From NCBI GenBank assembly GCA_964581355.1, contig CAZOOA010000005.1, positions 11,487 through 75,486 on the forward strand: a stretch of 64,000 nt of DNA, in the 5' to 3' direction. The notes under the pieces were generated by a model. It was not told the DNA's origin, did not search any database, and was given only the letters and a program-made list of their open reading frames with translations. This DNA is from an uncultured Desulfovibrionaceae bacterium (GTDB lineage: Bacteria > Bacillota > Dethiobacteria > DTU022 > UBA8154). This document shows positions 7,338 through 36,379 of the stretch, in pieces (position 1 is the first letter of the stretch; every line of letters begins with the position of its first letter). Position numbers and translations under genes: made by a program.

Positions 7338-8681
7338 TTGATTTTTAGCGGTCTCTCTGAAAAACTTCAAGATACATTTAATAAACTAAAGAAAAAAGGC
7401 AAGCTTAATGAAAAAGATGTTGAGTCGGCTTTGCGGGAGGTCAGGATGGCGCTCCTGGAGGCGGACGTCAATTATAAGGTTGTCAAAAATTTTACTTCAA
7501 CCCTCTCTGAAAGGGCTGTTGGCGCAGAAGTGTTAAAAAGCCTGACTCCTGGCCAGCAGGTGATCAAGATTGTCCACGAAGAGCTGGTCAATCTTATGGG
7601 AGAAAGTCAAAGTAAAATTGTTAGCCCTGATAACCCTCCCAAGACATTAATGCTTGTCGGGTTGCAAGGTTCCGGTAAAACGACGACAGCTGCCAAGTTG
7701 GCTTTGCACTTGAAGAAAATGGGCCACCGGCCTTTACTGGCGGCCGCGGATATTTATCGGCCTGCAGCCATTGATCAGCTTCATGTACTGGGCAAAGATG
7801 CCGATGTCCCGGTATTTAGTCAAGGGCAGGAGAAGCCGGATAAAATAGTAGCAGCAGCCCATAAAACCGCCAAACAAGAAGGAAATGATTATTTAATCGT
7901 TGATACAGCGGGTAGACTGCATATCAACGAAGAACTTATGTCTGAACTGGAACTGTTGAAGAAAAAATTTGACCCGGGGGAGATTTTACTGGTAGTCGAT
8001 TCTATGACAGGCCAGGATGCAGTCAATGTAGCCAAATCTTTTAACGAGCAGTTGGGACTTACCGGTGTTATATTGACCAAGTTGGATGGCGATACCAGGG
8101 GCGGTGCAGCTTTGTCTGTCAGGGCTGTTGCCGACTGTCCAATAAAATATGTGGGTACCGGAGAAAAACTGGATTCTTTTGAACCATTTTTTCCCGAAAG
8201 GATGGCTTCAAGGATCCTGGGGATGGGGGATATGCTTTCCCTGATAGAAAAGGCCCAGGGTGTAGTAGATGAAGAAAAGACCCGCGAACTGGAAAAAAAG
8301 ATGCGCAGCCAGTCTTTAACCCTGGAGGATTTTTTAGAGCAGCTGCAGCAAGTCAAACAAATGGGCCCCCTGGAAAACCTGGTAGAGATGATTCCGGGTT
8401 TAAACAAAGCTGCAGGAAAAGGCCTGGGGAACCTGAGCTTGGATGAAAAGCAGTTGGCCCGCGTGGAAGCAATTATCAACTCCATGACCCGGGAAGAGCG
8501 TCAAAAACCTGAAATTATCAACAGCAGCCGCAGGAAACGAATTGCCAGCGGTAGCGGGACTACAGTCCAGGATGTGAACCGGATTTTAAAACAGTTTGAA
8601 CAGATGAAGAAGTTGATGAAGCAGATGGGTTCCATGGAGAAAGGGAAAGGAAAGAAAAAGAAAGGGTTTTTCCCTTTTTAA
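7338..8681 (+). CDS. ffh: signal recognition particle protein Ffh (SRP54)
   Basis: TTG start. N-terminus MIFSGLSEKLQDTF aligns to Ffh MAFEGL.... GLQGSGKTTTAAKLA, DTAGR and a Met-rich M domain are present. Confidence 0.95.
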   Translation: MIFSGLSEKLQDTFNKLKKKGKLNEKDVESALREVRMALLEADVNYKVVKNFTSTLSERAVGAEVLKSLTPGQQVIKIVHEELVNLMGESQSKIVSPDNPPKTLMLVGLQGSGKTTTAAKLALHLKKMGHRPLLAAADIYRPAAIDQLHVLGKDADVPVFSQGQEKPDKIVAAAHKTAKQEGNDYLIVDTAGRLHINEELMSELELLKKKFDPGEILLVVDSMTGQDAVNVAKSFNEQLGLTGVILTKLDGDTRGGAALSVRAVADCPIKYVGTGEKLDSFEPFFPERMASRILGMGDMLSLIEKAQGVVDEEKTRELEKKMRSQSLTLEDFLEQLQQVKQMGPLENLVEMIPGLNKAAGKGLGNLSLDEKQLARVEAIINSMTREERQKPEIINSSRRKRIASGSGTTVQDVNRILKQFEQMKKLMKQMGSMEKGKGKKKKGFFPF

Positions 8682-8726
8682 TAGCACATTACATTAATAA
8701 CACAATACTCAGGAGGTGTATAGCTG

Positions 8727-8975
8727 ATGTCTGTACGGATTCGTTTAAAAAGAATGGGAGCAAAAAAACGTCCCTTTTATCGGGTGGTTGTTGCCAGCAC
8801 GAATTCTCCCCGTGATGGGCGTTTTATCGAAGAAATCGGGTACTATAACCCTACAACTGATCCCAAAACGATTAAGATCGACCAGGAGAAAGCTGAAAAG
8901 TGGCTCTCCAAGGGCGCTCAACCTTCAGAAACAGTCAAAACTTTGTTAGCGCAAGCTGGCCTGCAAAGCAAATAA
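8727..8975 (+). CDS. rpsP: 30S ribosomal protein S16
   Basis: [23 protein letters not shown]... is a canonical S16. Confidence 0.95.
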
Positions 8976-8996
8976 ATGCTAGGGGAGTGGTAACAG

Positions 8997-9227
8997 GTGA
9001 AGGAAATGGTTGAATACCTGGCAAAGGCCCTTGTCGATTATCCTGATCAGGTTGATGTAAGGCAGGTTGAAGGTGAGCGTTCCATCATTCTTGAGCTGCG
9101 GGTGGCATCGGAAGATATGGGAAAGGTAATTGGAAAACAGGGTCGGATCGCCAAGGCCATCCGTACTGTGGTCAATGCCGCTGCAGTAAAAGAGAATAAA
9201 AAGGTAATGGTGGAAATTATCCAGTAA
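8997..9227 (+). CDS. KH-domain RNA-binding protein (UPF0109, YlqC-like)
   Basis: GKVIGKQGRIAKAIRTVVNAA KH motif. Conserved position between rpsP and rimM. Confidence 0.85.
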   Translation: MKEMVEYLAKALVDYPDQVDVRQVEGERSIILELRVASEDMGKVIGKQGRIAKAIRTVVNAAAVKENKKVMVEIIQ

Positions 9228-9238
9228 GGAGCAGAGTA

Positions 9239-9754
9239 ATGACGTCTCACATGGTGATTGTTGGAAAAATCCTGGCTCCCTTTGGAGTAAAAGGCGAAGT
9301 TAAGGTTTTACCATATTCTGACCACCTGGAGCGTTGTTACCTGTTGAGAAACGTTAAAATTGAAGGGGCCGGTATTTCTGAATACAGGGAAGTTGAGCAG
9401 GCAAGTATCCATAAGAATATATGGCTCCTTCGATTTGCAGATTGCCACACGCGCGATGAAGCTCTGCGGATGAAAAATGCGCTGGTAAAAATAGACCCTT
9501 CCGAAAGGCTGCCTTTGCCTGAAGGAAGCTATTATTTTGACCAGGTTATTGGTTTGGATGTGTATACTGTGGAAGGAGTTTACCTGGGCCGACTAGAAGA
9601 TGTGCTCCAACCAGGAGGTAATGACGTTTACCAGATTATAAACGTTCATGATCAATCTCAAGTCCTGATTCCAGCTTTAAAAGAAGTGGTGAAAGAAGTT
9701 GACCTGGAAAAAGAAATAATGATTATTGAACCGCTACCTGGTCTGCTGGAATGA
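9239..9754 (+). CDS. rimM: 16S rRNA processing protein RimM
   Basis: VGKILAPFGVKGEVKV N-terminal RimM signature plus a PRC-barrel C-terminus. AAGGAG RBS. Confidence 0.9.
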   Translation: MTSHMVIVGKILAPFGVKGEVKVLPYSDHLERCYLLRNVKIEGAGISEYREVEQASIHKNIWLLRFADCHTRDEALRMKNALVKIDPSERLPLPEGSYYFDQVIGLDVYTVEGVYLGRLEDVLQPGGNDVYQIINVHDQSQVLIPALKEVVKEVDLEKEIMIIEPLPGLLE

Positions 9755-9856
9755 TCAACTCTCAGCAGTATGTCCGAAACAACAGGACAGAAACTCTGCT
9801 TGTAACAGCACAGGCAAGCGCAGAACCGGGATTCATGATGTAAGGTGTGAAGAGCT

Positions 9857-10558
9857 TTGAATGTTGATATTGTGTCAGCCTTTCCCAGGATGTTTGAGAG
9901 TGTTTTCGGGGAAAGTATTATTAAGCGGACGATAGAAAAAGAACTGGTTGCCATCAGGATTTGGGATTTAAGGGATTTCACCTCGGATAAGCATCGGCAA
10001 GTGGATGACTGTCCTTTTGGCGGTGGGCCCGGTATGGTAATGAAGCCGGAACCGTTTTTCCAAGCTGTAGAGTTCATCCAGGATGGGAATAAACACCTGA
10101 CAAACCGGAGAACTCTATTAATGTCGCCCCAGGGGGCGACTTTTTCCCAGCAAAAAGCGGTTCAATTGAGCAAGGTGGAACACCTGGTTATTTTATGCGG
10201 ACATTATGAAGGGGTCGATGAAAGGGTGCGGTTGTCCCTGGTGGACGAGGAAATATCCATCGGTGATTACGTTTTAACCGGGGGGGAACTGGCTGCCATG
10301 GTCCTGGTTGATGCTGTAATTCGCTTGCTCCCCGGTGCCTTAAAAGATGCCTCACTGGAAGAAGAATCATTTTCCAGCGGTTTGCTGGAGTACCCCCAGT
10401 ACACACGCCCCCGGGAATATCGAAACATGAAAGTCCCTGACATCTTGCTTTCTGGGGACCATGAAAAAATTCGAAAGTGGAGAGAGCAAATGTCGCTGCA
10501 AAAAACCCGGGAAAGAAGGCCTGACTTGCTATCCAGGCAGGACGGCTATACAGAATAA
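9857..10558 (+). CDS. trmD: tRNA (guanine37-N1)-methyltransferase TrmD
   Basis: TTG start. FPRMFESVF...[17 protein letters not shown]...[13 protein letters not shown] are TrmD motifs. Confidence 0.9.
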
Positions 10559-10725
10559 AGCGGCGATTCTATCTCCAGGGCTAAGCCTGAAATGGCGGCA
10601 ATACTATCAATTGCTATCATGATTAAAAATGTTGTTTATAACAATCTTCTGTGGTATATTTTAGAGATAGGATGATAAACTGGCACGGAAGTGGAAGTTG
10701 AAATATAAGAAAGGAGTTAGCTGCT

Positions 10726-11070
10726 ATGGATTTAGTGAAACAAGTAGAAAGTGAATATATGAAAGAAGAGGTTCCCTCTTTTGCAGTGGGAGATACGGTA
10801 AAAGTTCATTTTAAAGTTATCGAAGGAAACCGTGAAAGAATTCAGGTCTTTGAAGGTGTTGTGATCAAGAAAAAAGGTGGAGGTATTGGAGAAACATTTA
10901 CGGTGCGCCGGGTTTCTTATGGTGTTGGGATTGAGCGGGTTTTTCCTCTTCATTCACCCAAAATTGACAAGATCCAGGTGGCTCGCTGGGGAGATGTCAG
11001 GCGTTCGAAGTTGTACTTCTTAAGGCAGCTAAGGGGTAAGGCGGCCCGGATCAAGGAAAAGAAAAAATAG
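10726..11070 (+). CDS. rplS: 50S ribosomal protein L19
   Basis: [29 protein letters not shown]... is a canonical L19. Confidence 0.95.
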
Positions 11071-11116
11071 TTGAGAGCAGATCTTCCAGGTTATTTTGGT
11101 TTACGGAGCGTTGTCT

Positions 11117-11701
11117 ATGGAGAATGATTTTTTCAACACAGAAAATGATGCCTATAAAGAGCAGTCCAGTCAAAAGAACATGAAAAAAGAAGTGGGCGAA
11201 TGGGTCCGCTCTATTGTGTTGGCCATCGTTATTGCGGTGGTCATACGCATGTTTTTTTTCGAAACGTTTCTTGTGGACGGGACATCTATGTTTCCTACAC
11301 TACAGCATAATGAACGCCTGGTAGTCAATAAAGCGGTTTACTATTTCAGGGAACCCCAGGAGGGCGAAATCATTGTTTTTAATTATCAACCAAGGCCTCG
11401 CCGGGACTTCATTAAGCGTGTAGTGGCTACGGAGGGGGACACTGTTGAAATTCGAGACGGGGATCTTCTTGTTAACGATCAAGTGGTTGAAGAACCTTAT
11501 ATCAAAAAGAATTCCATGAGGGACTTTGGCCCCGTCGAAATACCTGAGGAGCACCTCTTTGTTTTGGGTGATAACCGCAATAACAGCATGGATAGCCGCG
11601 ACAAGGAAGTAGGTGCTGTTTCCCTGGAGCAGGTTAGAGGAAAAGCGCTTGTAGTCTTTTGGCCGCCCTTCGAAGTCAGGGCTTTGGGGGAAGAATCATG
11701 A
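11117..11701 (+). CDS. lepB: signal peptidase I
   Basis: A TM segment followed by GTSMFPTL (Ser box), KRVVATEGD and GDNRNNSMDSR boxes. GGAG RBS lies 9 nt upstream of the ATG at 11117. The ORF track's TTG at 11096 is less likely. Confidence 0.85.
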   Translation: MENDFFNTENDAYKEQSSQKNMKKEVGEWVRSIVLAIVIAVVIRMFFFETFLVDGTSMFPTLQHNERLVVNKAVYYFREPQEGEIIVFNYQPRPRRDFIKRVVATEGDTVEIRDGDLLVNDQVVEEPYIKKNSMRDFGPVEIPEEHLFVLGDNRNNSMDSRDKEVGAVSLEQVRGKALVVFWPPFEVRALGEES

Positions 11702-12546
11702 GTGGAGAACGCCCTTCCGGTGTGATGCTCAAAGAAGAGAAACGTCTGTTACAGCACCTCAAGCATGTAGACTTGGTGGTGGAAGCCCTGGATGCACGCC
11801 TGCCAAAAACAAGCAGGAACTACCGGTTTTTAAATGCTCTTGCAAGTAAAAAGAGAGTGGTTTTGTTAAATAAAGCAGATCTGGCGGATCAAGATGTTAC
11901 GGGTCAATGGATTAACTTTCTGGGAAAAGAACATTGGCCCGTTTTGGCGTTTTCCAGCAAAACCAATCGTGATCTAAAGCGCTTTGAGTCCCTGCTTATG
12001 AAGCAGCGTCCCCAAAATATGAAATTTAAGCGCCCTTTACGGTTAATTGTTGTGGGCATCCCCAACGTGGGAAAATCATCGGTCATAAACCGCCTGGCAC
12101 ATAAACTGGCTGCGAGAACAGGCAATACACCCGGTGTTACACGGGGGCCTCAGTGGATCCGCTTGAGAGCAGGCTGGGAGATGCTCGATACTCCAGGCTT
12201 GCTTTCACCAAACCTGGACCCTGAAAAAGCTTCCCCTGGGCTGGCTGTTATTGGGGCCATTAGTCCCCGGGCTTATGATCATGAAACAGTTGCCCAATGG
12301 CTGTTGGATTGCCTGCTCCAAAAGGAGCGATACCGCAAGTTATTGCAGGATTATTATGGGCTGGAACCTGCTGGGCCCGATGAAGGCACAGAAACTTACC
12401 TAAAGCGCATTGGACAATCCCGGAGACTGCTGGGTCCGGGAGGGGATGTTAGTAAGGAAAAATCATCCCAGGTTTTATTAAAAGATTTTCGGAAAGGAGC
12501 GCTGGGGCGCATAACCCTGGAAAGCCCTGGAGATGTAGATGAATAG
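11698..12546 (+). CDS. rbgA: ribosome biogenesis GTPase A (YlqF/RbgA)
   Basis: Circularly permuted GTPase: NKADL precedes GIPNVGKSS. The ATG overlaps the lepB stop. Confidence 0.9.
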   Translation: MSGERPSGVMLKEEKRLLQHLKHVDLVVEALDARLPKTSRNYRFLNALASKKRVVLLNKADLADQDVTGQWINFLGKEHWPVLAFSSKTNRDLKRFESLLMKQRPQNMKFKRPLRLIVVGIPNVGKSSVINRLAHKLAARTGNTPGVTRGPQWIRLRAGWEMLDTPGLLSPNLDPEKASPGLAVIGAISPRAYDHETVAQWLLDCLLQKERYRKLLQDYYGLEPAGPDEGTETYLKRIGQSRRLLGPGGDVSKEKSSQVLLKDFRKGALGRITLESPGDVDE

Positions 12547-23069: not shown

Positions 23070-23138
23070 CCTTTAATTATTTTCTCCAAAGCTACATAAA
23101 TACCTTTTATCTTTTCAGGCAGAAAGGAGAAATTGTCT

Positions 23139-23579
23139 ATGACTTACATCGGAGTGATCGGTTCGGGGACTTGTGATGAGCAGACAGGACGGCTGGCTTA
23201 CGAAGTTGGGGCGAATATTGCAAAAAAAGGGGCTGTCCTGGTCTGCGGCGGTATGGGCGGAGTCATGGAAAGTGCCTGTCGGGGTTGCAAAGAACAAGGA
23301 GGAACCAGCCTTGGAATTATACCAGGCAGTGACCGCCGGGAGGCGAACCCCTATGTTACTCATGCCCTGCCTACAGGATTGGGGGAATTGAGAAATTTTT
23401 TGGTTGTTCGTTTTAGCGAAGCTTTGATCGCTGTGGCTGGAGAATACGGAACCCTTTCTGAAATGGCCATTGCACTTAAAGAAGGGAAAAAAGTGGTCGC
23501 TTTACATTCACCATTCGATTTAAAAGGGCTTATTGTCGTTTCCAGTGCAGGCGAAGCGGTGGAAAAAGCATTTTTATAA
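23139..23579 (+). CDS. TIGR00725/LOG-family (SLOG) Rossmann-fold protein
   Basis: IGVIGSG...VLVCGGMGGVMESACRG...VAGEYGTLSEMAIAL pattern typical of LOG/TIGR00725. GGAGA RBS lies 10 nt before the ATG. Confidence 0.7.
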   Translation: MTYIGVIGSGTCDEQTGRLAYEVGANIAKKGAVLVCGGMGGVMESACRGCKEQGGTSLGIIPGSDRREANPYVTHALPTGLGELRNFLVVRFSEALIAVAGEYGTLSEMAIALKEGKKVVALHSPFDLKGLIVVSSAGEAVEKAFL

Positions 23580-23746: not shown

Positions 23747-24421
23747 TTGAGAGCATTTCATGTCTTGGACGAGATTTTCTGTGTTGGCGGTAGTGAACAG
23801 TCGGCCCCCGAGGATGGGAGTGTCTATTTGGTGCAGGGCCCGGACGAGTTATGGCTTATTGACAGCGGTTGCGGCAATTCTGTGGACGCCATCATAGAGA
23901 ATATTCAGGGATTGGGGTTTGACCCTTCCCGGATCAGTAAAATTATTGCAACGCACTGCCATATTGACCACTGTGGCGGTTTGGCTGAACTGCAAAAACG
24001 TTTTAATCCCGAAATTATAGCTCACGCTGGAGACGTAGATGCTCTCGAAGGTCGGGCCCCTGAAAAAGTTGCGGCGGAGTTTTACGGGATTGACTATCAT
24101 CCTGTCCGGGTGTCTACCGTGCTCCGCGAGGCGCGTGCGAGCTTGAGCCTGGGCAGCCAGGAACTCGTTTTGCAGCATGTCCCCGGGCATACTCCAGGGA
24201 GTATCGTTGTCTGGGGGGATTTTCCTGGAGGAAGGGTGTTGTTTGGCCAGGATTTGCACGGTCCACTGCACCCTAACTGGGGTTCGGACAGGCAGGCCTG
24301 GAAAAAATCTCTGGAGCAGCTCTTAAAGCTTGATGCCGATGTATTGGCTGAGGGGCATTTTGGAGTAATATCCCCTGCAGAAAATGTAAAGCTGTTTATC
24401 AAACGCTTCCTGTATTCATAA
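23747..24421 (+). CDS. MBL-fold metallo-hydrolase
   Basis: ATHCHIDHCGG matches the HxHxDH zinc motif. TTG start lies 9 nt after an AAGGAG RBS. Confidence 0.85.
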   Translation: MRAFHVLDEIFCVGGSEQSAPEDGSVYLVQGPDELWLIDSGCGNSVDAIIENIQGLGFDPSRISKIIATHCHIDHCGGLAELQKRFNPEIIAHAGDVDALEGRAPEKVAAEFYGIDYHPVRVSTVLREARASLSLGSQELVLQHVPGHTPGSIVVWGDFPGGRVLFGQDLHGPLHPNWGSDRQAWKKSLEQLLKLDADVLAEGHFGVISPAENVKLFIKRFLYS

Positions 24422-24477
24422 ATAAATCTACCCGGGCCTTCGCTGGCCCGGGCAAAAAATGAAAAGGAAGGAAAAAG

Positions 24478-25281
24478 ATGAGTAAAAAAAATATGGACGT
24501 AACAGGACTGAAAAGTGTGTTTAAGGACGGGTTAACTGTGGCATTGGGAGGCCAGTCTGTTACCATGAACCCGGTCCAGCTCATTTGTCAGGTCTTAAAA
24601 GACGGGTTTAAGGATCTTCACCTGGTTGCCTCCCCTGTGGGTGGCTTTGGGGCGGATTTGATGATCGGTGCAGGTGCAGTAAAATCTATTGAATTTGCTC
24701 AAATGGGCTTGTGGGAGTACGGCCTTGCTCCCAACCTGCGGCGTTACTCCCAGGAAGGACGAATTACCTGCGTGGAGCATACCTGACCCAGCCTTTTGGC
24801 CGGGCTCCAGGCTGGAGCCATGGGATTGCCCTTTATGCCTGTGCGTGGAATCATTGGAACGGATTACTTGAAAATACGCTCGGATTTTAAAGTCCTGGAC
24901 AACCCTTACGGGGACGACCAGGTTGTTGTCGTGCCGGCCATAGAGCCAGATATTGCTTTGATCCATGCCAAGAAAGCGGATCTGTCGGGCAATGTCCTGG
25001 TAGATCGCTTTGAAAATGACCCCCTTTTGGCCCGCGCTTCCAAAAATGTTTTTGTTTCCTGTGAAGAAATGGTACAGAATGTCTATGATGATTTTACTGT
25101 AGAAGATATCGTGATCCCTTCTATCTACATTGACGGAATTATTCCTCTTCCCGGGGGTGCCAGGCCGACCCAATGCCATGGGTATTATGATTTTGATGGT
25201 GAAACCATCAAAAAGTATATCAAAGCTTCCAAGGATGAATCCGCACTGCAGGGTTTCCTGAACGAGTTTGTGGGTCAATAA
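24478..25281 (+). pseudogene. family-I CoA-transferase subunit A interrupted by a single in-frame TGA (24784-24786). Either a pseudogene, a sequencing error, or a recoded UGA
   Basis: ORFs 24478-24786 and 24796-25281 are in the same frame (offset 318 nt), and together they span a normal ~266-aa alpha subunit (...RITCVEHT*PSLLAGLQAGAMGLPFMPVRG...). The subunit B gene follows. Confidence 0.6.
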
Positions 25282-25311: not shown

Positions 25312-26046
25312 ATGTCAGCTACTTATACAATGGAAGAACTGATGGCGACTGCAATCTCCCGGGAAATCAAAGATGGAGAAGTTGTAGCCGTGGGGACTTT
25401 ATCTCCTGCTCCTGCTGCCGGTGCCATCCTGGCAAAGTTAAGCCACGCCCCAAATGCGGAACTGGCCGTTTGGATGGTCCGGGAGTACTGGCCGTTTACC
25501 GAGGGGATTAAGGAGTTTTTTGACCTGGCCCAGAAGGGGGCCGTGGACCTGTTTTTCCTGGGCGGGGCACAAATTGATCAGCACGGAAACACCAACCTGC
25601 ATGTTCTGGGTGATTACTACCAGCCTAAGGTGAGGCTGCCCGGCGGAGCAGGCACTGGGACGCTGTATTATACGGTGCCCCGGGTGATGCTGTTTAAAGC
25701 AGATCACAATACCCGTTCTTTTGTGGAGAAAGTAGATTTTGTGACCGGTGCCGGGAAATCTCCCCCGGAAGTTATGCGCAGGGGGCATGCCGAAAAGTGT
25801 ATTACTCCCCTATGTGTCTTTTCTTATGACAAAAAACAAGAGCGGCTGGAGCTGGATTCTATCCACCCCGGCATTGAACTGCAGCAGGTAATTGACAACA
25901 CAGGCTTTCCTTTGCATAACCTGGAAAATATTCCAGTTACCAGGGAGCCGTCGCCGGATGAACTCCGCTTGTTAAGGAATGAGGTGAAAAACAAGCTGCA
26001 GGCTGCCTATCCTCATTTTGTCAAGTCTGCATTTGCTTCCAGTTAA
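25312..26046 (+). CDS. family-I CoA-transferase subunit B (glutaconate/3-oxoacid CoA-transferase-like)
   Basis: MSATYTMEELMATAISREIKDGEVVAVG and the following conserved blocks are typical of the beta subunit. Confidence 0.85.
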   Translation: MSATYTMEELMATAISREIKDGEVVAVGTLSPAPAAGAILAKLSHAPNAELAVWMVREYWPFTEGIKEFFDLAQKGAVDLFFLGGAQIDQHGNTNLHVLGDYYQPKVRLPGGAGTGTLYYTVPRVMLFKADHNTRSFVEKVDFVTGAGKSPPEVMRRGHAEKCITPLCVFSYDKKQERLELDSIHPGIELQQVIDNTGFPLHNLENIPVTREPSPDELRLLRNEVKNKLQAAYPHFVKSAFASS

Positions 26047-26095: not shown

Positions 26096-27061
26096 GTGAT
26101 TACCCGTGCAGAAAAGTTTTGCGGTGCGCTTTTGGGGACACATGTTGGAGATGCCCTGGGAATGCCGCTGGAGGGGGCTTCTGCTGCTGCCATTAAGAAA
26201 AACTATGGACAGGTTCGTGAGATGCTGGATGCCCGGTTAGGTGCCGGGACATATACTGATGATACAGAAATGATGATCGCGTTGGCAGAGAGCCTGGTCC
26301 GCAGCCAGGGGATGAACGGGGCAGACCTGGCCCATTCTTTCCTGGAAAACTTTAACCCGCTGCGCGGTTACGGAGCGGGGAGTCGCAAAGCCATGGAACT
26401 GCTCCGTGCGGGAATCAGCTGGAAAGAAGCAGGGAAAAGAATCTTTGAAGGTGGTTCCTACGGTAATGGAGCTGCCATGCGCATAGCACCATTGGGTTGT
26501 CTCTATTGTCATGATCCCCGGGAACTCCAAGAGGCTGCACGAGTTTCTTGTTTAGTGACGCATGCCCATCCCTGGGGGCAGGAAGGGGCCTTGCTTCAGG
26601 CTTATTCTGTGGCCCTGGCGGTAAACGCGGATCCCGCCCGGGGGCTGGAAAGGGGTCAGTTCCTGGATTCCCTGGAAAACCTGTTGGAACCGGACTCTCC
26701 CTTCCTGGAAAAAACTGCAGTGATGCGGAAGCTTTTGGACCAGGACATGCAGTTGGAAGACGTAGCAAATGTTCTGGGAAATGACAGCCGGGCGCTCACC
26801 TCAGTGCCTGCAGCGATTTTCTCCTTTCTCCGGAACTGCCAGGACTTCGAAGAGACCGTGGTTTATGCGGTAGGAATCGGTGGGGATACGGATACCATCG
26901 CTGCCATGGCCGGGGCTATGGCCGGTGCCTTTCATGGTAAAGGGGCAATTCCCGGGCGTTGGCTTGATTCCCTGGAGAGAGGGGAAAAAGGCGCGGATTA
27001 TATTGAGCAGCTGGCCCTTAATCTTTATGAATTACACCAGGAATTTAATCCGGGCTCATAG
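26096..27061 (+). CDS. ADP-ribosylglycohydrolase family protein (DraG-like)
   Basis: GALLGTHVGDALGMPLEG...YTDDTEMMIALAESL...GGDTDTIAAMAGAMAGA are ARH-family metal-binding motifs. GTG start with an AAGGAGG RBS. Confidence 0.85.
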   Translation: MITRAEKFCGALLGTHVGDALGMPLEGASAAAIKKNYGQVREMLDARLGAGTYTDDTEMMIALAESLVRSQGMNGADLAHSFLENFNPLRGYGAGSRKAMELLRAGISWKEAGKRIFEGGSYGNGAAMRIAPLGCLYCHDPRELQEAARVSCLVTHAHPWGQEGALLQAYSVALAVNADPARGLERGQFLDSLENLLEPDSPFLEKTAVMRKLLDQDMQLEDVANVLGNDSRALTSVPAAIFSFLRNCQDFEETVVYAVGIGGDTDTIAAMAGAMAGAFHGKGAIPGRWLDSLERGEKGADYIEQLALNLYELHQEFNPGS

Positions 27062-27135
27062 ACATGCCGTCAGCCTTATAGTATAATGATTCTTACTTAC
27101 TTAAGTACAGGAAATGTTGGAGGCGGGTAGCGATT

Positions 27136-28786: not shown

Positions 28787-29899
28787 GTGGGAGTGGTCTC
28801 ATTGCAAAAACCGTTGGATTTTCTATATGGAACCGTGACAGGGATCGGGAGCATGCCCGATGAAGATGCCAGTTCAGCCCTGGAATTAATCAAAAATACC
28901 ATCAGTGTAGGACCTCACTGGCCCCAGCTTCCCAAGCGTGGGCGCCAGGAGAGCTTTATCCGGCAGTATCTTACTCCCCTGGTTCGCCTGGGGCTTATTG
29001 ACATCGAATCAGGAGACTCCCCGGTCTTTCAGGACGATTCCGGGGATTGGCTGGAAAACATGGAACAATTTTACCAATACTTTTTGAATTTTGAAGAAGG
29101 GGGAAACTTGAAAGAAGAGGCTCTTTCTTTTTTTGCTTTCCCAAAAGAAGCAGCATCGGGTTTCCACCTGTTTCTGCAGCAGGAATGGGAAAAAATGTCG
29201 CCTGTGCCATCCTTCGTTAAAGGGCACATCAGCGGTCCGTTGACAGTGGGTCTGCAGTTGTTTGCCCATGATCAGTCAACCTCTTTTTACCGGGAAGACC
29301 TGCGGGACATCTTGACAAAAACTCTCTCCTTGATTGCCGCGTACCAGGTCCGGGAAATGAAGAAATCTTCAGTGCCTGTACTCATTTTTATCGACGAGCC
29401 GGGCCTGTTGACTTTTGGCCAATCGACGTATGTTTCTTTATCCCGTGATGATATCTCTGCAAGCTTACGCCAGGTAGTCGACGGAATAACCAGGGCTGGC
29501 GGTTATGCCGGGACACATTGCTGTTCCGGTGTGGACTGGTCTATTTTATTTGAACTGCCGCTGCAGGTGGTCAACTTCGATGCGTACGGCTTTTTTGATT
29601 CAATGCTGGTTTATACCCGGGAGCTGGATAGATTCCTGGCCAATGGGGGATGCTTATCCTGGGGTATTGTCCCCACCACTGAAGATGTGGAAAAAGAAGA
29701 TGTGAACTCCTTGAAAGCAAGATTCTTTGAAGGAGTCGAACGCCTTAGCAGTCAAGGGGTGAACAAAGAACGGCTGTTAAAGCAATATATGATTACTCCC
29801 AGCTGCGGCGCCGGCACATTAACCAGGGAACAAACAGAAAATGTATACCAGTTAACCGGCCAATTAAACCAGGCCATCAAAGCAGAATTACCCGGTTAA
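28787..29899 (+). CDS. cobalamin-independent methionine synthase (MetE C-terminal / Meth_synt_2, URO-D-like) family protein
   Basis: IFIDEPGL and a zinc-ligand pattern H-C-C (GTHCCSG) ... PSCGAG resembling the MetE His/Cys/Glu/Cys site. The start codon is uncertain (GTG at 28787 or TTG at 28802). Confidence 0.55.
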   Translation: MGVVSLQKPLDFLYGTVTGIGSMPDEDASSALELIKNTISVGPHWPQLPKRGRQESFIRQYLTPLVRLGLIDIESGDSPVFQDDSGDWLENMEQFYQYFLNFEEGGNLKEEALSFFAFPKEAASGFHLFLQQEWEKMSPVPSFVKGHISGPLTVGLQLFAHDQSTSFYREDLRDILTKTLSLIAAYQVREMKKSSVPVLIFIDEPGLLTFGQSTYVSLSRDDISASLRQVVDGITRAGGYAGTHCCSGVDWSILFELPLQVVNFDAYGFFDSMLVYTRELDRFLANGGCLSWGIVPTTEDVEKEDVNSLKARFFEGVERLSSQGVNKERLLKQYMITPSCGAGTLTREQTENVYQLTGQLNQAIKAELPG

Positions 29900-29968: not shown

Positions 29969-31018
29969 TTGGGATTGCGTTCACTGCTTAAGGAAATAAC
30001 CCAGAAAGACGGGGTGTCAGGATTTGAACAGGAGCTGGCAAAAACAATAAGCCAGCATTTTGCCTCCCTGGTGGATGATACCAGGACAGATAACCTGGGG
30101 AACTTGATCATGTTGAAAAAAGGCAGCAAAGGCTTTCCCCGGGTGATTTTATGTGCTCATATGGATGAAATCGGATTAATTGTAACCAAAATGGAAAAAG
30201 GCGGTTTTTTACGTTTTACTTCGCTTGGTGGTTTTGATGTCCGTACTCTGCCCGGCCAGAAAGTTACTGTTTATGGCCGGGAAACCTTTGAAGGTATCAT
30301 CGGCTTTAACCCGCCTCACCTGCAAACAAGCCAGGAAAGAAACAAAAGTCCCCAAATGGACACCCTGTTTATTGATACCGGTTTGCCCGAGGAAGAGGTG
30401 GAAAAGTCCATTCCAATAGGCTCTGTGGCGGCAATACAACGGAGCTTTTTAGATCTCATGCATCAGACAAGTGCCGGGAAGGCATTCGACGACCGTGCCG
30501 GCGTGGCTGTGCTCTGGCAATGTGCCGGGGAATTGAACAAGCTCGTCCACGAGGCGGATGTCTATCTCGTTGCCACAGTCCAGGAAGAAGTGGGCGTGCG
30601 GGGGGCTGTTGTTTCTGCTTATGGCCTCTCCCCGGACCTGGGAGTCGCTGTAGATGTCTGCCACGGCAGTATTCCCGGGGCCAAGGAACACGAAGCTTCC
30701 GAGCTGGGAAAAGGTCCCGTGGTCACCGCCGGTCCCAATATCCACCCGGGTATTGCCGAGAGGCTGGCAGCAGTAGCCAAAGATTATCATCTCCCCTGCC
30801 AAAGGGATGTTTCCCCCGGACCTACGGGAACTGATGCCCGGGCTATCCAGGTCAGTATGGAGGGAATCCCTACCGGTCTGCTGTCCATTCCCCTGCGCTA
30901 TATGCATACTTCGGTGGAGTTGGTCGACCTGGATGATGTAAAGTTGAGCGGAAGGCTTCTGGCTTATTTCACGGCCGGGCTGGATCAAACGATGGTGGAG
31001 GAACTGTCATGCTTATAA
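29969..31018 (+). CDS. M42-family (TET/FrvX-like) aminopeptidase, paralog 1
   Basis: CAHMDEIGLIV, DDRAGVAVL and a C-terminal metal-binding block. TTG start after a GGGAGG RBS. Confidence 0.85.
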   Translation: MGLRSLLKEITQKDGVSGFEQELAKTISQHFASLVDDTRTDNLGNLIMLKKGSKGFPRVILCAHMDEIGLIVTKMEKGGFLRFTSLGGFDVRTLPGQKVTVYGRETFEGIIGFNPPHLQTSQERNKSPQMDTLFIDTGLPEEEVEKSIPIGSVAAIQRSFLDLMHQTSAGKAFDDRAGVAVLWQCAGELNKLVHEADVYLVATVQEEVGVRGAVVSAYGLSPDLGVAVDVCHGSIPGAKEHEASELGKGPVVTAGPNIHPGIAERLAAVAKDYHLPCQRDVSPGPTGTDARAIQVSMEGIPTGLLSIPLRYMHTSVELVDLDDVKLSGRLLAYFTAGLDQTMVEELSCL

Positions 31019-32043
31019 AAGAGTTGTCTGACCTTCCCGGTGTCTCCGGGGACGAAAAAAAAGTCCGAGACTATATCCGGGAGCAGTTGGAACAAGAGAA
31101 AATAGAGCACTTTACCGATTCCATGGGCAACCTGTACGCTGTAAAAAAAGGCAGAAAAAACAGCGGAAGAGAACATCAAATCATGCTGACCGCCCACATG
31201 GATGAAGTGGGATTGATGCTCGCTTCGGTGGAAAAAAGTGGTCACCTGCGGTTTTATACCGTGGGAGGCATCAATGAATGGTCTCTGGTCTCCAGGCCAG
31301 TAATAATTGGCAGGGATGAAGTGCCCGGTGTCATCGGGGCCAAGGCTGTGCACCTGCAGAAACCCGAAGAGCGCCGGAAGGCCCTGCAGGTGGACCAGCT
31401 GTATATTGATATCGGTGCCCGGAGTAAAGAGGATGCAGAGAAAAAAGTCAAAGTGGGTGATTATGTTTCCTTTGATGTGCAGGCAGGCAGCATGGCCCAG
31501 GGCCGAATGATTTCCGGTAAAGCCCTGGACAACAGGGCCGGCTGCGCAGCGCTGCTGGAGTTGCTGCAAAAAGAATATGAACAGGGCTTTACAGCAGTCT
31601 TTACCGTGCAGGAAGAGGTGGGGTTAAGGGGGGCCAGGGTGGCCGCCTACCGGGTAAACCCGGAGATTGCCCTGGTGCTGGAAACTACAACAGCTTCCGA
31701 CCTGCCTGAGCTTAAGGAAAAAGACTTTGCCACGACAATGGGTAAAGGCCCCGCTTTTACTATCCGGGACGGCTCGGTAGTCTCCCATCCCCGGGTTCTG
31801 GAGCGGCTCATCCAGACAGCAGAGGAACAAAACCGTCCATACCAGTTTCGGCAGTATACCGGGAGTTTCACCGATGCAGGGATCATCTCGCAGTCCCGTG
31901 CCGGGGTAAAAGCCGGGGTGATCTCAACACCGTGCCGTTATATTCACACATCCGCTTCACTCCTGGACAAAAAAGACTGGGAGCATCTTGTAGAAATTGC
32001 TGCTGGTTTTGTAGGCTCAGTACATGAAAAGGGGTTGGAATAG
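31009..32043 (+). CDS. M42-family aminopeptidase, paralog 2
   Basis: TAHMDEVGLML and LDNRAGCAALLE. Overlaps the paralog 1 stop. Confidence 0.85.
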   Translation: MLIKELSDLPGVSGDEKKVRDYIREQLEQEKIEHFTDSMGNLYAVKKGRKNSGREHQIMLTAHMDEVGLMLASVEKSGHLRFYTVGGINEWSLVSRPVIIGRDEVPGVIGAKAVHLQKPEERRKALQVDQLYIDIGARSKEDAEKKVKVGDYVSFDVQAGSMAQGRMISGKALDNRAGCAALLELLQKEYEQGFTAVFTVQEEVGLRGARVAAYRVNPEIALVLETTTASDLPELKEKDFATTMGKGPAFTIRDGSVVSHPRVLERLIQTAEEQNRPYQFRQYTGSFTDAGIISQSRAGVKAGVISTPCRYIHTSASLLDKKDWEHLVEIAAGFVGSVHEKGLE

Positions 32044-32045
32044 TG

Positions 32046-33038
32046 ATGAAGGAATTAATAGAAACATTAACAGGCACTTTTGGGCCTGCTGGCGCTGAAA
32101 ATACGATAAGTTCGGTGATCCTGGAAGAAATCAAGCCCTATGTGGACGATTATTTTACCGACAACCTGGGCAACCTGGTTGCTTCCAAAGGTGATCCGGG
32201 CCAGGCAAAGCTCCTGGTCGCCGCGCATATGGATGAGATCGGGCTGATGGTTACTTATATCGAAGAAAAGGGTTTTTTACGTTTTACCGGGATCGGCGGG
32301 ATCAGGAACGAGCTGCTCCTGGGCAGCAGGTTGGTATTTGAAAACGGGACAACCGGTGTGATCGGCTTGGAGAAGTTAAAAGAAAAAAAAGACCCGGAAC
32401 TAAGCGATTACTACCTGGACATCGGGGCAAAAAATGCGGATGAAGCCAAAGAACGGGTCAAAATAGGCGATACAGCCTGTTTTCTGGCTCCTTTCGCCCT
32501 GCAAAACCGTCGTGTGATGGCAAAATCCCTGGACAACAGGGCTGGTTGTGCCGTATTGATCGAAACGATAAAAAATCTCCCCCGGGAACTCCCCATAGGC
32601 GTATATTTCGTTTTTACCGTGCAGGAAGAGTTGGGGTTAAGAGGAGCGAGGCCTGTATCCTACAGGCTTAAGCCAAACTATGGTCTGGCTGTTGATGTTA
32701 CCCGGGTGGGCGACACACCGGAACCGGAATATAAAATGAATCTAGCCCTGGGGGAAGGTCCTGCGATTAAGGTCAAAGACTCTTCGGTAATCTGCCACCC
32801 CTTGATTATTGAGAAAATGACAACGGCAGCGGTAAACAATCGTATTCCTTACCAGTTTGAAGTCCTGGAGAGAGGGGGTACTGATGCCGGGGCCATCCAT
32901 CTTTCCAGGGAAGGCGTTCCTTCGGGGGTGCTTTCGATCCCCTGCCGCTATATCCACAGTCCTTCCGAAATGGTTGACCTGGATGACATGGAGCATGCAG
33001 TCTCCCTGCTAAGCGCTCTCTTGCAGGAATCCTGGTAA
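32046..33038 (+). CDS. M42-family aminopeptidase, paralog 3
   Basis: AAHMDEIGLMV and LDNRAGCAVLIE. Its ATG is adjacent to the paralog 2 stop. Confidence 0.85.
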   Translation: MKELIETLTGTFGPAGAENTISSVILEEIKPYVDDYFTDNLGNLVASKGDPGQAKLLVAAHMDEIGLMVTYIEEKGFLRFTGIGGIRNELLLGSRLVFENGTTGVIGLEKLKEKKDPELSDYYLDIGAKNADEAKERVKIGDTACFLAPFALQNRRVMAKSLDNRAGCAVLIETIKNLPRELPIGVYFVFTVQEELGLRGARPVSYRLKPNYGLAVDVTRVGDTPEPEYKMNLALGEGPAIKVKDSSVICHPLIIEKMTTAAVNNRIPYQFEVLERGGTDAGAIHLSREGVPSGVLSIPCRYIHSPSEMVDLDDMEHAVSLLSALLQESW

Positions 33039-33218: not shown

Positions 33219-33420
33219 GGCGTGGGCGGGGACACGAACCTGCACCAGAAGCCATTAGTTTTGTTTGTATCTGCCTTCAATGAACAAACTAGTTTTAACT
33301 TAAGTGATTGCTCTGCCTGGAGCCGTCAAAGGACCGGGACAGCAGGTACATCAGCTAAGGATTTTTATGTGCCTTCCTGTTTTCCTGGAAGGCATAATTT
33401 ATTTTAAGGCCTGGTGAGCG

Positions 33421-34299
33421 ATGAAAAAAATTGCCGTAATCGGTGCAGGAAACGTGGGAACCGTGTTGGGGCTGGCCCTGTTTAATAAGGGCTACACCCT
33501 TGTTGGTGCAGTGACTAAGTCCTCGGAAGGTCGTGCTGAAGCTGCTAAACAGCTGCAGTGCCCGGTTTATTCCCAGCCCCACCAAGCTTCCAGAGAAGCG
33601 GAGATTGTTTTTATTACCACCCCGGACCGGGTTATCGAAGACGTGTGTCAGCAGATGGCCCGTGAAGGAGGTTTTTACAAAGGGCAGATTGTCATACACT
33701 GCAGCGGTGCCCATAGCTCTGAGATCCTGCAATCCTCCCGGAAAGCCGGGGCATGGGCCTTATCCATGCATCCCTTGCAAACCTTTCCAGGGACGGAAGC
33801 CGGACTGCGAGCTCTTCCGGGCACCTTTTTTGCTGTAGAAGGAGATACTGGCGCTTTGCCAACTGCCGGGGATTTGGTTAATGCCTTGGGGGGTGAAATG
33901 CTGCCCATCTCCACAGAAATGAAGACTCTTTACCATGCTGCAGCATGTGTTGCCTGCAACTACTTGACCTCCCTCCTGGATGGAGCACTGCGTATGTACG
34001 AACAGGCTGGCGTATCCAGGGAGCAGGCTGTAAAAGCTCTTTATCCCCTGATCTCCAGGACCCTGGAAAACATCAAAGAAGCAGGTCCCGAACAGGCTTT
34101 AACGGGCCCCATCGCCCGGGGGGATACAACAACGGTAAAAGCTCATGTGGAAGAGTTGCAGCGCTTCCTCCCAGAGCTTCTCCCATTTTATCAAATCATG
34201 GGTCAGCAAACAGTGGGGCTGGCTTTGCGTAAAGGAACGCTGACGGAAACACAGGCAGAAAACATAAATTATTACTTAAAACAAGGAGGAACCGATTAA
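33421..34299 (+). CDS. Rossmann-fold DUF2520-family oxidoreductase; putative ketopantoate reductase leading the pan operon
   Basis: KIAVIGAGNVG NAD(P)-binding motif. Immediately precedes panB-panC-panD. No panE is present in the window. Confidence 0.65.
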   Translation: MKKIAVIGAGNVGTVLGLALFNKGYTLVGAVTKSSEGRAEAAKQLQCPVYSQPHQASREAEIVFITTPDRVIEDVCQQMAREGGFYKGQIVIHCSGAHSSEILQSSRKAGAWALSMHPLQTFPGTEAGLRALPGTFFAVEGDTGALPTAGDLVNALGGEMLPISTEMKTLYHAAACVACNYLTSLLDGALRMYEQAGVSREQAVKALYPLISRTLENIKEAGPEQALTGPIARGDTTTVKAHVEELQRFLPELLPFYQIMGQQTVGLALRKGTLTETQAENINYYLKQGGTD

Positions 34300-34300
34300 C

Positions 34301-35143
34301 ATGGCCGGTCGCTACTCGATTGTTGATTTTCGCGAGATGAAAAAGGAAAAGAAACAGATCTCCATGCTGACAGCATATGACTTTCCAACAGCCCAACTTC
34401 TTGATGAAGCAGGCGTGGAAATGATTCTTGTTGGAGATTCACTGGGTATGGTGGTTCTGGGATATGAAGACACTCTTTCTGTAACTTTGACTGATATGAT
34501 CCACCACGGTAAAGCGGTGGTTCGCGGGAGTAAGCAGGCTTTTGTGGTGGTGGATATGCCTTTTTTAACCTACCATATAAACTCGGAAGATGCCCTGCGC
34601 AATGCCGGGAAATTAATCCAGGAAACAGGGGCTCAGGGGGTTAAATTGGAAGGCGGACAGGAAATTATCGCTGCGGTTCGTGCCATAACGGGTGCAGGAA
34701 TACCTGTTATGGGTCATTTGGGGCTGACTCCTCAATCTGCCGGTCAACTCGGAGGCTTCAAGGTCCAGGGTAAAGATCCCCAGGTAGCCAGGAAAATGGT
34801 TGAGGATGCTGAGGCCCTGGAGGAAGCAGGAGCTTTTTCCCTGGTGCTGGAATGTGTCCCCTGGCAGTTGGCCCAGGCAATTACTCAGCGGGTTTCTATT
34901 CCTGTTATCGGTATCGGAGCAGGGAAAAACTGCGATGGACAGGTACTGGTTTATCATGACGTAATGGGTCTTTTTACTGGTAAGCGTCCCAAGTTTGTCA
35001 AACAATACGTAGATGCACGGAGCGAGATGCTCAAAGGGGTAAAGAGGTACTTAAAGGAAGTCCAGGAAGGCTCTTTTCCCGAAGAAAAGCACACCTTTTC
35101 CATGTCCGAATCGGTCCTGGAAGAAGCATTAAAAGAAGGCTAG
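34301..35143 (+). CDS. panB: 3-methyl-2-oxobutanoate hydroxymethyltransferase
   Basis: ISMLTAYDFPTAQLLDEAGVEMILVGDSLGMVVLGYEDT is canonical PanB. Confidence 0.95.
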   Translation: MAGRYSIVDFREMKKEKKQISMLTAYDFPTAQLLDEAGVEMILVGDSLGMVVLGYEDTLSVTLTDMIHHGKAVVRGSKQAFVVVDMPFLTYHINSEDALRNAGKLIQETGAQGVKLEGGQEIIAAVRAITGAGIPVMGHLGLTPQSAGQLGGFKVQGKDPQVARKMVEDAEALEEAGAFSLVLECVPWQLAQAITQRVSIPVIGIGAGKNCDGQVLVYHDVMGLFTGKRPKFVKQYVDARSEMLKGVKRYLKEVQEGSFPEEKHTFSMSESVLEEALKEG

Positions 35144-35164
35144 AAAGAAGGCTAGGAGGTTGCC

Positions 35165-36010
35165 ATGCAGGTCGTTGAGAAAATCCAGGATCTGAAACAT
35201 ATAATAAATCAGCTCCGGCAAGAGGGGCAAAGTATTGGCTTCGTCCCTACAATGGGCTTTTTGCATGAGGGCCATCTTTCCCTGGTGCGTGCGGCTCGCC
35301 GGGAAAATGACTTTGTAGTGGTCAGTATTTTTGTAAATCCCATCCAGTTTGGTGCAGGGGAGGATTATGAAGATTATCCCCGTGACCTGGAAAGGGATCA
35401 GCACCTGGCTTCCCAGGCAGGGTGTGATTTAATTTTTTCTCCCACAGTTACAGAGATGTACCCTGCCGGTTATGCTACTTATGTTGAGGTGGAACAGCTC
35501 ACCGATACTCTTTGCGGCAGTCACAGGCCTGGTCATTTTCGCGGAGTGACCACGGTAGTTGCCAAGCTTTTCAACCTGGTAATGCCCCACCGGGTCTATT
35601 TTGGCCAAAAAGATGCCCAGCAGGCCCTGGTGTTAAATAAAATGGTCCTGGACCTGAATATGGACCTGCAGTTTCAAATCCAGCCTACAGTAAGAGAAGA
35701 AGATGGACTGGCTATGAGCTCAAGAAATAAATACCTGGACCCAAAACAAAGACGTGAGGCTGCAGTTCTTTTTAAAAGCCTGCAGGAAGCGGAGAAGATG
35801 ATTCAGTCTGGAGAAATAAAGGCTGGTAGCGTGAAACATGCTATGGATGAACTGATTCGGGGGGGTAGTGACTCAGAGATCGAGTACGTGGAAATAGTGG
35901 ACATTCAAAGTTTGCGTCCGGTGGAAACAATACAGGGACAATGCCTGGTTGCATTGGCTGTCCGGTTCGGAAAAACCAGGTTAATCGATAACATTATCGT
36001 GGAGGTGTGA
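35165..36010 (+). CDS. panC: pantoate--beta-alanine ligase
   Basis: GFVPTMGFLHEGHLSLV carries the HIGH-type motif of PanC. Confidence 0.95.
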   Translation: MQVVEKIQDLKHIINQLRQEGQSIGFVPTMGFLHEGHLSLVRAARRENDFVVVSIFVNPIQFGAGEDYEDYPRDLERDQHLASQAGCDLIFSPTVTEMYPAGYATYVEVEQLTDTLCGSHRPGHFRGVTTVVAKLFNLVMPHRVYFGQKDAQQALVLNKMVLDLNMDLQFQIQPTVREEDGLAMSSRNKYLDPKQRREAAVLFKSLQEAEKMIQSGEIKAGSVKHAMDELIRGGSDSEIEYVEIVDIQSLRPVETIQGQCLVALAVRFGKTRLIDNIIVEV

Positions 36011-36013
36011 TCT

Positions 36014-36379
36014 TTGTACAGGACGATGTGCAAGTCAAAAATTCACAGGGCAACTGTTACAGACGCTGATTTAAATTACGTGGGCAGCATTACCATCGAC
36101 CAGGAATTGTTGGAACAGGCGGATATAATGCCTTATGAAAAAGTCCAGGTAGTAAACAACAACAACGGAGCCCGCCTGGAAACATATACAATTCCCGGTG
36201 AACGGGGCAAAGGCGATATCTGCTTGAATGGCGCGGCAGCCCGCTTGGTCCAGCCGGGAGATATTGTTATCATCATCAGTTATGCCCAGTATTCCCAGCA
36301 GGAACTGGATACTTATGCGCCTAAAGTTTTGTTCATGGGTGAAAACAACCGGATCGACCGGGTTGCTTCAGAGGGTTAG
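36014..36379 (+). CDS. panD: aspartate 1-decarboxylase
   Basis: TTG start. [29 protein letters not shown] includes the Gly-Ser self-cleavage site. Confidence 0.9.

Follow-up and report, generated by a model that had tools for sequence, protein, structure and literature searches.

The glutaconate coenzyme A (CoA)-transferase GctAB of Acidaminococcus fermentans consists of alpha and beta subunits, and Glu54 of its beta subunit is the covalent catalytic residue needed by family I CoA-transferases (PMC5380842). The alpha-beta fold is also found in enzymes that are not transferases, namely IpdAB, the hydrolase cleaving the COCHEA-CoA ring (PDB: 6co6, 6coj, and 6con), and AibA/AibB, the 3-methylglutaconyl-CoA decarboxylase (PDB: 5mzw). 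In the related succinyl-CoA:3-ketoacid CoA-transferase (SCOT; PDB: 1ooz and 3oxo), Gln99 is one of the conserved residues around the bound CoA (PMC12817287). In this study, a pair of genes for alpha and beta subunits with this fold was analyzed in a 64,000-nucleotide stretch of DNA, herein referred to as the window, from an uncultured bacterium deposited as Desulfovibrionaceae and assigned by GTDB to Bacillota (GCA_964581355.1, contig CAZOOA010000005.1, positions 11,487 to 75,486 of the forward strand). The alpha-subunit gene contains an in-frame TGA codon at positions 24784-24786, which, as judged from comparison with related loci, very probably encodes selenocysteine (Sec) at position 103 of a 267-residue protein (predicted U103).

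This TGA is the only internal stop codon in the frame, with 102 codons upstream and 164 codons downstream. When Cys is put at the TGA, residues 14-222 of the product match the Pfam family CoA_trans (PF01144, E = 2.9e-21). The predicted U103 is located in the motif E-H-T-U-P, and the predicted peptide across the UGA is ...VEHTUPSLLAGLQ..., also given as ...VEHT-U-PSLLAGLQAGAMGLPFMPVR. In the first-pass annotation of this DNA, two open reading frames (ORFs) were considered to be one full-length alpha-subunit gene with a single TGA, followed by an intact gene for the partner subunit. Both statements hold, as the two ORFs form a single 267-codon frame and the products of both genes match PF01144 (Table 1).

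A search of 5.8 billion proteins resulted in 119 homologues of the alpha subunit. All homologues with more than ~48% identity are C-terminal fragments of 148-178 amino acids that correspond only to the part after the TGA. These fragments form about 30 clusters, and their shared boundary indicates that gene callers halted at the same place in many organisms. The full-length homologues (267-305 amino acids, 33-44% identity) all have Cys at the aligned column, for example in the contexts EHTCPA, DHVCSA, DATCPA, and ESCCAT.

DNA was fetched for 169 related loci, and the codon at the TGA column was read directly; 160 homologous loci were counted. TGA was found in 19 loci, representing 17 distinct sequences, and a Cys codon (TGC or TGT) was found in the other 141, with no further codon at this column. 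The number of Cys forms is a lower bound, at least 141 among the loci collected. The metagenome scan gave mostly distant Cys forms among the matches listed, with only L082, L083, and L085 being TGA forms; further TGA forms were fetched one by one via their truncated proteins. The TGA forms share 41-99% protein identity with the alpha subunit of the window and come from two Syntrophomonadaceae, metagenome-assembled genomes of Clostridiales, Dethiobacter, another member of Bacillota, and Thermodesulfobacteriota, as well as from several metagenome contigs. On the 5' side of the TGA, the frame of each stays open for at least 100 codons, and on the 3' side for at least 150, except where the contig ends. 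Conservation of UGA in at least two different sequences has been used as a criterion for a new selenoprotein family (PMC1088965), and 17 distinct sequences were found here. Additionally, the UGA is aligned with a conserved Cys, forming a Sec/Cys pair in all 141 non-TGA loci; in the first-pass annotation, Cys at this position was considered to favor Sec, and this is indeed the residue found. In the neighbor-joining tree, all 16 Sec forms fall into one clade, and the only Cys members inside this clade, among the loci in the tree, are four from Paenibacillus (L007-L010).

Selection was measured by Nei-Gojobori counts among the TGA forms, as the ratio of nonsynonymous to synonymous differences per site (pN/pS). 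The ratio is 0.40 in the 20 codons preceding the TGA, 0.34 in the 11 codons from the TGA to the first possible ATG restart, and 0.21 at codons +12 to +40 after the TGA. In two TGA forms (L001 and L165), Leu and Thr are found at the position of the supposed restart Met. Together, the selection after the UGA and these two Met-less forms indicate that the stretch following the UGA is translated within the same protein, which speaks strongly against a pseudogene, an error in sequencing, or a split gene that re-initiates translation.

Thus, a true split gene is very improbable. In such a gene, the UGA would end a 102-residue piece, and a C-terminal piece would restart at the ATG for Met115 and assemble with the first one non-covalently. 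An ATG does occur 12 codons past the TGA in most of the TGA forms, and split subunits are known in the superfamily, the alpha and beta subunits themselves being split from single-chain enzymes. Nonetheless, the stop would have to hit the invariant Cys codon exactly, every time, and the key residue of the active-site motif [DE]-x-T-[CU]-P would be missing. Moreover, the 11-codon stretch from the TGA to the ATG shows protein-level conservation along with synonymous variation, unlike an untranslated spacer, the Met itself is replaced in the two forms mentioned above, and no Shine-Dalgarno-like sequence is found upstream of the ATG, where the stretch is filled by an RNA hairpin.

This hairpin was analyzed in a gap-free alignment of the 54 nucleotides from each TGA in 17 sequences. 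A single dominant helix, pairing columns 20-26 with columns 30-36, was found by RNAalifold; in the window it corresponds to positions 24803-24819, with the stem starting 16 nt and the loop 23 nt past the UGA. Folded alone, the hairpin of the window has an energy of -12.1 kcal/mol (z = -2.63), and only 1 of 200 dinucleotide shuffles was as good. Across the 17 sequences, standard pairs occupy 97.5% of the cells of the helix. All seven pairs are formed in 14 TGA sequences and six of the seven in the other three. Compensatory double changes were found at four of the seven pairs (G-C to C-G, G-C to A-U, C-G to U-A, and A-U to G-C), and the apical loop GGC is invariant. None of 500 column shuffles matched the observed pairing or covariation, and pairing falls to 29-47% of the cells when the 3' partner is shifted by 1-3 columns.

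Five third codon positions of the sequence encoding the peptide G-L-Q-A-G-A lie within the stem. Linked changes in the stem connect Gln CAG with Ala GCU, Arg CGG with Ala GCC, and the Ala-to-Val replacement (GCC to GUC) with the change of Gly GGG to GGA. Thus, the compensations tie protein-level changes to silent ones. A similar peptide is encoded by the Cys-form genes, so they serve as a natural control. In 138 Cys forms, mostly 2-4 of the seven pairs are formed at the same columns. When the hairpin is forced, its energy is -7.2 to -12.9 kcal/mol in the 17 Sec forms versus a mean of +0.7 kcal/mol in the 138 Cys forms. Among the TGA forms, pS is 0.52 in the 11 codons after the UGA versus 0.77-0.81 in the flanks, which fits an added constraint at the RNA level.

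For the bacterial Sec insertion sequence (SECIS) element, the four described criteria are an apical loop of 3-9 nt on a stem of 4-16 bp, a G within the first two positions of this loop, a UGA-to-loop distance of 16-37 nt, and a minimum free energy of -7.5 kcal/mol or lower (PMC13188914). The hairpin of the window agrees with all four, having a 3-nt loop on a 7-bp stem, GG, a distance of 23 nt, and an energy of -12.1 kcal/mol. The stable hairpin proposed in the first-pass annotation was a different one, at 24788-24815, which overlaps the hairpin at 24803-24819 so that the two are mutually exclusive. Its drawn form has an energy of -12.4 kcal/mol, but folding at least as good was obtained for 32 of 200 dinucleotide shuffles (z = -1.08), and on the 17 TGA sequences it is paired in 80.4% versus 79.3% in column shuffles, with 46 of 500 shuffles reaching the observed value. 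Thus, the earlier hairpin is within chance and is not conserved, and the conserved hairpin is the one at 24803-24819.

A UGA decoded without Sec has little chance of being the correct explanation. In this case, Trp or Cys would be inserted by near-cognate read-through, or Cys would be inserted via the Sec pathway, with the hairpin slowing termination. Termination is weak in bacteria when C follows the UGA, and such a context was found in 14 of the 17 TGA sequences. On the other hand, the loop sequence and spacing of the hairpin fit the SelB-type SECIS model, and an alignment column with a conserved catalytic Cys typifies Sec rather than read-through with Trp. The Cys forms inside the Sec clade, all four from Paenibacillus, have changed the codon to TGC or TGT rather than keeping TGA. 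Furthermore, all sampled carriers belong to Bacillota or Thermodesulfobacteriota, both largely anaerobes, and Sec use is very probable for one of the carriers, L164. Finally, a recent pseudogenization or a sequencing or assembly error, both listed among the options in the first-pass annotation, would require only one nucleotide change (TGC or TGT to TGA) and would agree with the splitting of the gene into two fragments by gene callers and in NCBI records, but is extremely improbable, because the same TGA occurs in 17 distinct sequences with the wide range of identity given above, from independent assemblies and two phyla (this divergence excludes an artifact of a single assembly source), no further stop or frameshift is found on either side of it, both halves are under purifying selection, and the covarying hairpin is restricted to the TGA forms.

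Reassignment of UGA (genetic code 4 or 25) is ruled out, as TGA ends six well-defined genes of the window: fabF, topA, rpsB, tsf, pyrH, and ribF. Indirect evidence for Sec decoding was found on contig L164, another carrier of the TGA form. This contig contains a gene for an FdhA-like molybdopterin oxidoreductase (9768-12528, plus strand) with an in-frame TGA in the context HCARL-U-HS, which we take to be the well-known Sec site of formate dehydrogenases; a strong hairpin follows this TGA. The organism carrying L164 thus very probably decodes Sec, and the FdhA-like gene is another unannotated selenoprotein gene. On the same contig, a CC_Se_fam gene (Pfam; 5277-5477, minus strand) adjoins the alpha-subunit gene.

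Several observations weigh against Sec at the TGA of the alpha subunit. Neither the 64-kb window nor the flanking DNA retrieved contains a selA, selB, selD, or tRNA-Sec gene. The window contains no tRNA genes at all, and no tRNA-Sec was found in 18 TGA-form loci. Pfam domains of 30 further window genes are all of the housekeeping type, without selA, selB, or selD; the housekeeping genes of the window include fabF, rnc, smc, ftsY, ffh, trmD, rnhB, topA, trmFO, xerC, hslU, and codY, as well as rpsB, tsf, pyrH, cdsA, dxr, rseP, ispG, nusA, infB, truB, and ribF. The stem codons encode a conserved peptide, so conservation of the hairpin is partly protein-driven. The 3-nt loop is at the small extreme of the SECIS model. 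An Rfam scan of the window gave no match to a SECIS family, the pan motif being its sole match; Rfam models are not expected to cover bacterial SECIS elements in general, and this null result is taken as uninformative. The closest Cys form, L007 from Paenibacillus, keeps six of the seven hairpin pairs. In this locus (Paenibacillus puerhi), the six-pair stem is located at about 6297-6313, after a TGC codon, and it may represent a fossil SECIS persisting after a Sec-to-Cys change.

In the first-pass annotation, recoding of the UGA was ranked as the least likely option; the Cys column, the recurrent TGA, and the covarying hairpin reverse this order. When the ribosome nears the UGA, the downstream hairpin with its GGC loop would act as a bacterial SECIS element and bind the SelB-GTP-Sec-tRNA(Sec) complex, from which Sec would be inserted. 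Such SelB-dependent decoding, which we infer from the features of the hairpin, would yield the full-length alpha subunit with U103 in place of a 102-residue fragment. The alpha subunit would then pair with the beta subunit encoded at 25312-26046, forming a CoA-transferase-fold enzyme of the GctAB/IpdAB/AibAB branch.

Table 1. Features of the alpha/beta locus and adjacent genes in the window
Feature	Position	Strand	Description
TIGR00725/LDcluster4 (LOG-like) gene	23133-23579	+	Upstream of the alpha-subunit gene
MBL-fold gene	23747-24421	+	Upstream of the alpha-subunit gene
Shine-Dalgarno-like GGAAGGA	24466-24472	+	5 nt 5' of the ATG at 24478, from sequence
CoA-transferase-fold alpha-subunit gene	24478-25281	+	267 codons plus TAA, read across the TGA; PF01144 match
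In-frame UGA, predicted Sec codon (residue 103, U103)	24784-24786	+	Sec/Cys column in homologues
Predicted bacterial SECIS core, GGCUCCA-GGC-UGGAGCC	24803-24819	+	24803-24809 paired with 24813-24819, loop 24810-24812
Beta-subunit gene, 244 amino acids	25312-26046	+	PF01144, E = 9.7e-25; PDB 1poi_B, E = 1.1e-24
ADP-ribosylglycohydrolase (DraG-like) gene	26096-27061	+	PF03747, E = 4.7e-72; directly 3' of the beta-subunit gene

Both subunits belong to the CoA_trans fold, and their genes are adjacent. The closest solved structures for the alpha subunit are GctA (1poi_A, E = 4e-30), AibA (5mzw_A, E = 1e-27), and IpdA (6coj_A, E = 2e-20), and those for the beta subunit are GctB, IpdB, and AibB. The Sec/Cys column is occupied by Gln in GctA, Gly in AibA, and Ala in IpdA; the latter two residues show that Cys/Sec is specific to this alpha subfamily. 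According to the profile of the full-length Cys forms, this column aligns with Gln99 of pig SCOT, the sequence of which was checked against PDB 1ooz. In the motif [DE]-x-T-[CU]-P, all 140 distinct sequence contexts have the acidic residue at position -3, and few exceptions are seen for Thr at -1 or Pro at +1; no partner Cys is close by. The acidic residue at -3 is presumably the counterpart of Glu105, the catalytic base in IpdA.

The sequence of GctB was verified against 1poi_B and aligned with those of 117 subfamily beta subunits. Opposite the catalytic Glu54, these proteins have Leu (97), Ile (8), or Trp (7), the rest having Met, Gln, or Val; Trp54 is found in the beta subunit of the window. 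No conserved Glu was found within four residues on either side of this column in the 117 proteins, and a deletion of 25-30 residues follows it. Thus, the catalytic Glu with which family I CoA-transferases form the enzyme-CoA thioester is absent from the aligned position in these beta subunits, and the subfamily probably does not consist of CoA-transferases. The hallmark of the non-transferase enzymes, that is, loss of the catalytic Glu in the beta subunit with the alpha/beta CoA-binding fold kept, is seen here, and from the aligned sequences we infer another non-canonical enzyme with the CoA-transferase fold. The opposite view can draw on the alignment of the beta subunits, which is not robust beside the deletion of 25-30 residues, and on a mostly conserved Glu or Asp about 10 residues downstream (F-T-[ED]-G), which could conceivably substitute for the missing Glu.

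The alignment with the CoA-lining Gln99 of SCOT and the absence of the usual catalytic Glu from the beta subunit make it plausible, with a slight balance in favor, that Sec/Cys is an active-site residue of a non-transferase enzyme. More tentatively, and with rather less likelihood, Sec103, or Cys in the roughly 140 Cys forms, may replace the lost Glu of the beta subunit and act directly on an acyl-CoA thioester, for instance as a nucleophile with an acyl-selenoester or acyl-thioester as the intermediate, or as an acid/base in cleavage of a C-C or C-S bond. The subfamily would then be a class of CoA-transferase-fold enzymes not recognized before.

The ADP-ribosylglycohydrolase gene following the beta-subunit gene may be co-transcribed with the alpha/beta pair; a promoter-like site was seen only beyond this gene, at 27059-27087. 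Upstream of the alpha-subunit gene, in the 56-nt gap separating it from the MBL-fold gene, a 12-bp G+C-rich hairpin was observed at 24427-24456. It has a terminator-like score only on the minus strand; 3' of it on the plus strand, an A-run is found instead of a T-run. A TTG-initiated ORF for 227 amino acids is located antisense to the alpha-subunit gene (24595-25278, minus strand). This ORF is most likely spurious, and a gene caller could choose it since the true gene looks broken.

Genes of the nucleotide/ADP-ribose type recur beside the TGA-form pairs on unrelated contigs and in differing arrangements. In the window, these are the LOG-like, MBL-fold, and ADP-ribosylglycohydrolase genes (Table 1). 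LDcluster4 and MBL-fold genes are located beside the pair in L162 (1596-2793), and LDcluster4 is accompanied by a Macro gene in L164 (7328-8368) and L168 (7262-8408). Adenine deaminase and HAD hydrolase genes are found together beside the pair in L003 (3294-5892); among the ORFs scanned, adenine deaminase was also found in L002 (3936-5738) and HAD hydrolase in L004. ROK kinase genes are located near the pairs in L004, L163, L164, and L168. The neighbor genes of this type in L004 occupy positions 5059-5799 and 7620-8579. These recurrent neighbors may hint at the substrate, and the predicted Sec enzyme may be linked to them.

For the Cys forms, no coherent pathway was found among the neighbors in the Paenibacillus and Bradyrhizobium loci. 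The pair in Paenibacillus L007 is adjoined by genes for a luciferase-like monooxygenase and a family III CoA-transferase (4562-5944 and 8374-9699), and a peptide ABC transporter is also encoded in the Paenibacillus neighborhood. In Bradyrhizobium L023, a CMD/AhpD-like gene (5215-5790) adjoins the pair. The family III transferase neighbor, found in one locus, would fit an alpha/beta enzyme whose substrate is a CoA ester supplied by a different enzyme.

Further downstream in the window, three tandem paralogous genes for M42-family peptidases (29969-33038, plus strand) follow an ORF for 370 amino acids (28787-29899) with no Pfam match. The same block also follows the alpha/beta locus in L162. The Rfam pan motif (RF01749) is located at 33261-33346 on the plus strand, with 36.7 bits versus the gathering score of 36.2, directly upstream of genes at 33421-36379. 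The equivalents of these genes in L081 have the Pfam domains of pantoate transferase (panB) and pantoate ligase (panC).

Previously described selenoproteins were surveyed for members of this family. The table of a May 2026 review, covering more than 100 prokaryotic selenoprotein families, has no entry for a CoA-transferase, PF01144, COG1788, or AtoD. No CoA-transferase selenoprotein family is mentioned in the deep-Sep paper or in the main text of the BSepDB paper, the latter statement extending to the main text and not to the family list in its supplement. Full-text literature searches gave nothing relevant on a selenoprotein CoA-transferase or on a characterized Cys-type member. No model of NCBIfam release 20 reaches its cut-off for the alpha family, and the protein database contains no full-length U-containing record, the fragments being named only "hypothetical protein" or "CoA-transferase". 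The first-pass expectation that a Sec-containing CoA-transferase would be novel thus agrees with all sources searched. The mechanism of recoding would be the ordinary bacterial one, with the protein family apparently being the new part.

If the prediction is true, a gene annotated as two fragments or as a "hypothetical protein" is a complete selenoprotein gene, which can be added to catalogues and annotation pipelines. Sec usually marks a catalytic residue, so the Sec/Cys pair points to a functional residue of an uncharacterized subfamily; this would provide a functional handle on a large subfamily named "glutaconate CoA-transferase subunit A/B", with at least 141 Cys forms. Among bacterial selenoproteins, it would be unusual to find a selenoenzyme that has a thioester-handling fold and lacks a redox partner Cys, and, if the catalytic role of Sec103 is also true, its chemistry would be that of thioesters rather than redox. 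In general, recoding sites can be revealed by homologues that are truncated at a conserved place in the databases, and the alpha-subunit gene is a clean example. Similar logic still yields new selenoprotein families, and nothing is overturned by this case.

Among the known systems, GctAB (PDB: 1poi) is the best structure match for both subunits, and it shares with the analyzed locus the two-gene alpha-beta layout and the Pfam family. Unlike GctAB, the beta subunits described here have Leu, Trp, or Ile at the Glu54 column together with the deletion of about 25-30 residues, and GctA has Gln where Cys/Sec is found here. IpdAB and AibA/AibB are clear sequence relatives with the non-transferase alpha-beta fold. 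The catalytic Glu of the beta subunit is lost in IpdB (Gly57) and AibB (Cys56), as it is in the beta subunits of this subfamily, and Glu occupies the acidic column three positions before Sec in both IpdA and AibA. However, the Sec/Cys column differs, which argues against orthology with IpdAB and AibAB, and, unlike in those systems, no genes of steroid or isovalerate pathways were found in the neighborhoods examined. SCOT has the same fold, with Gln99 at the Sec/Cys column, but it is a distant relative (E ~1e-7), a single-chain enzyme with the catalytic Glu305 in an SENG motif.

In terms of recoding, the alpha-subunit gene resembles the bacterial selenoprotein genes, such as fdhF of E. coli and grdB. 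As in these genes, the UGA is aligned with Cys in homologues, the stem-loop is located inside the coding region just 3' of the UGA and has a small apical loop beginning with G, the distance from the UGA to the loop is within 16-37 nt, and the gene is routinely mis-annotated as two ORFs. Most known selenoproteins are oxidoreductases with motifs of the UxxC or CxxU type. The predicted protein, in contrast, belongs to PF01144, a family absent from the 2026 review table, and has the motif [DE]-x-T-U-P in a thioester-handling fold.

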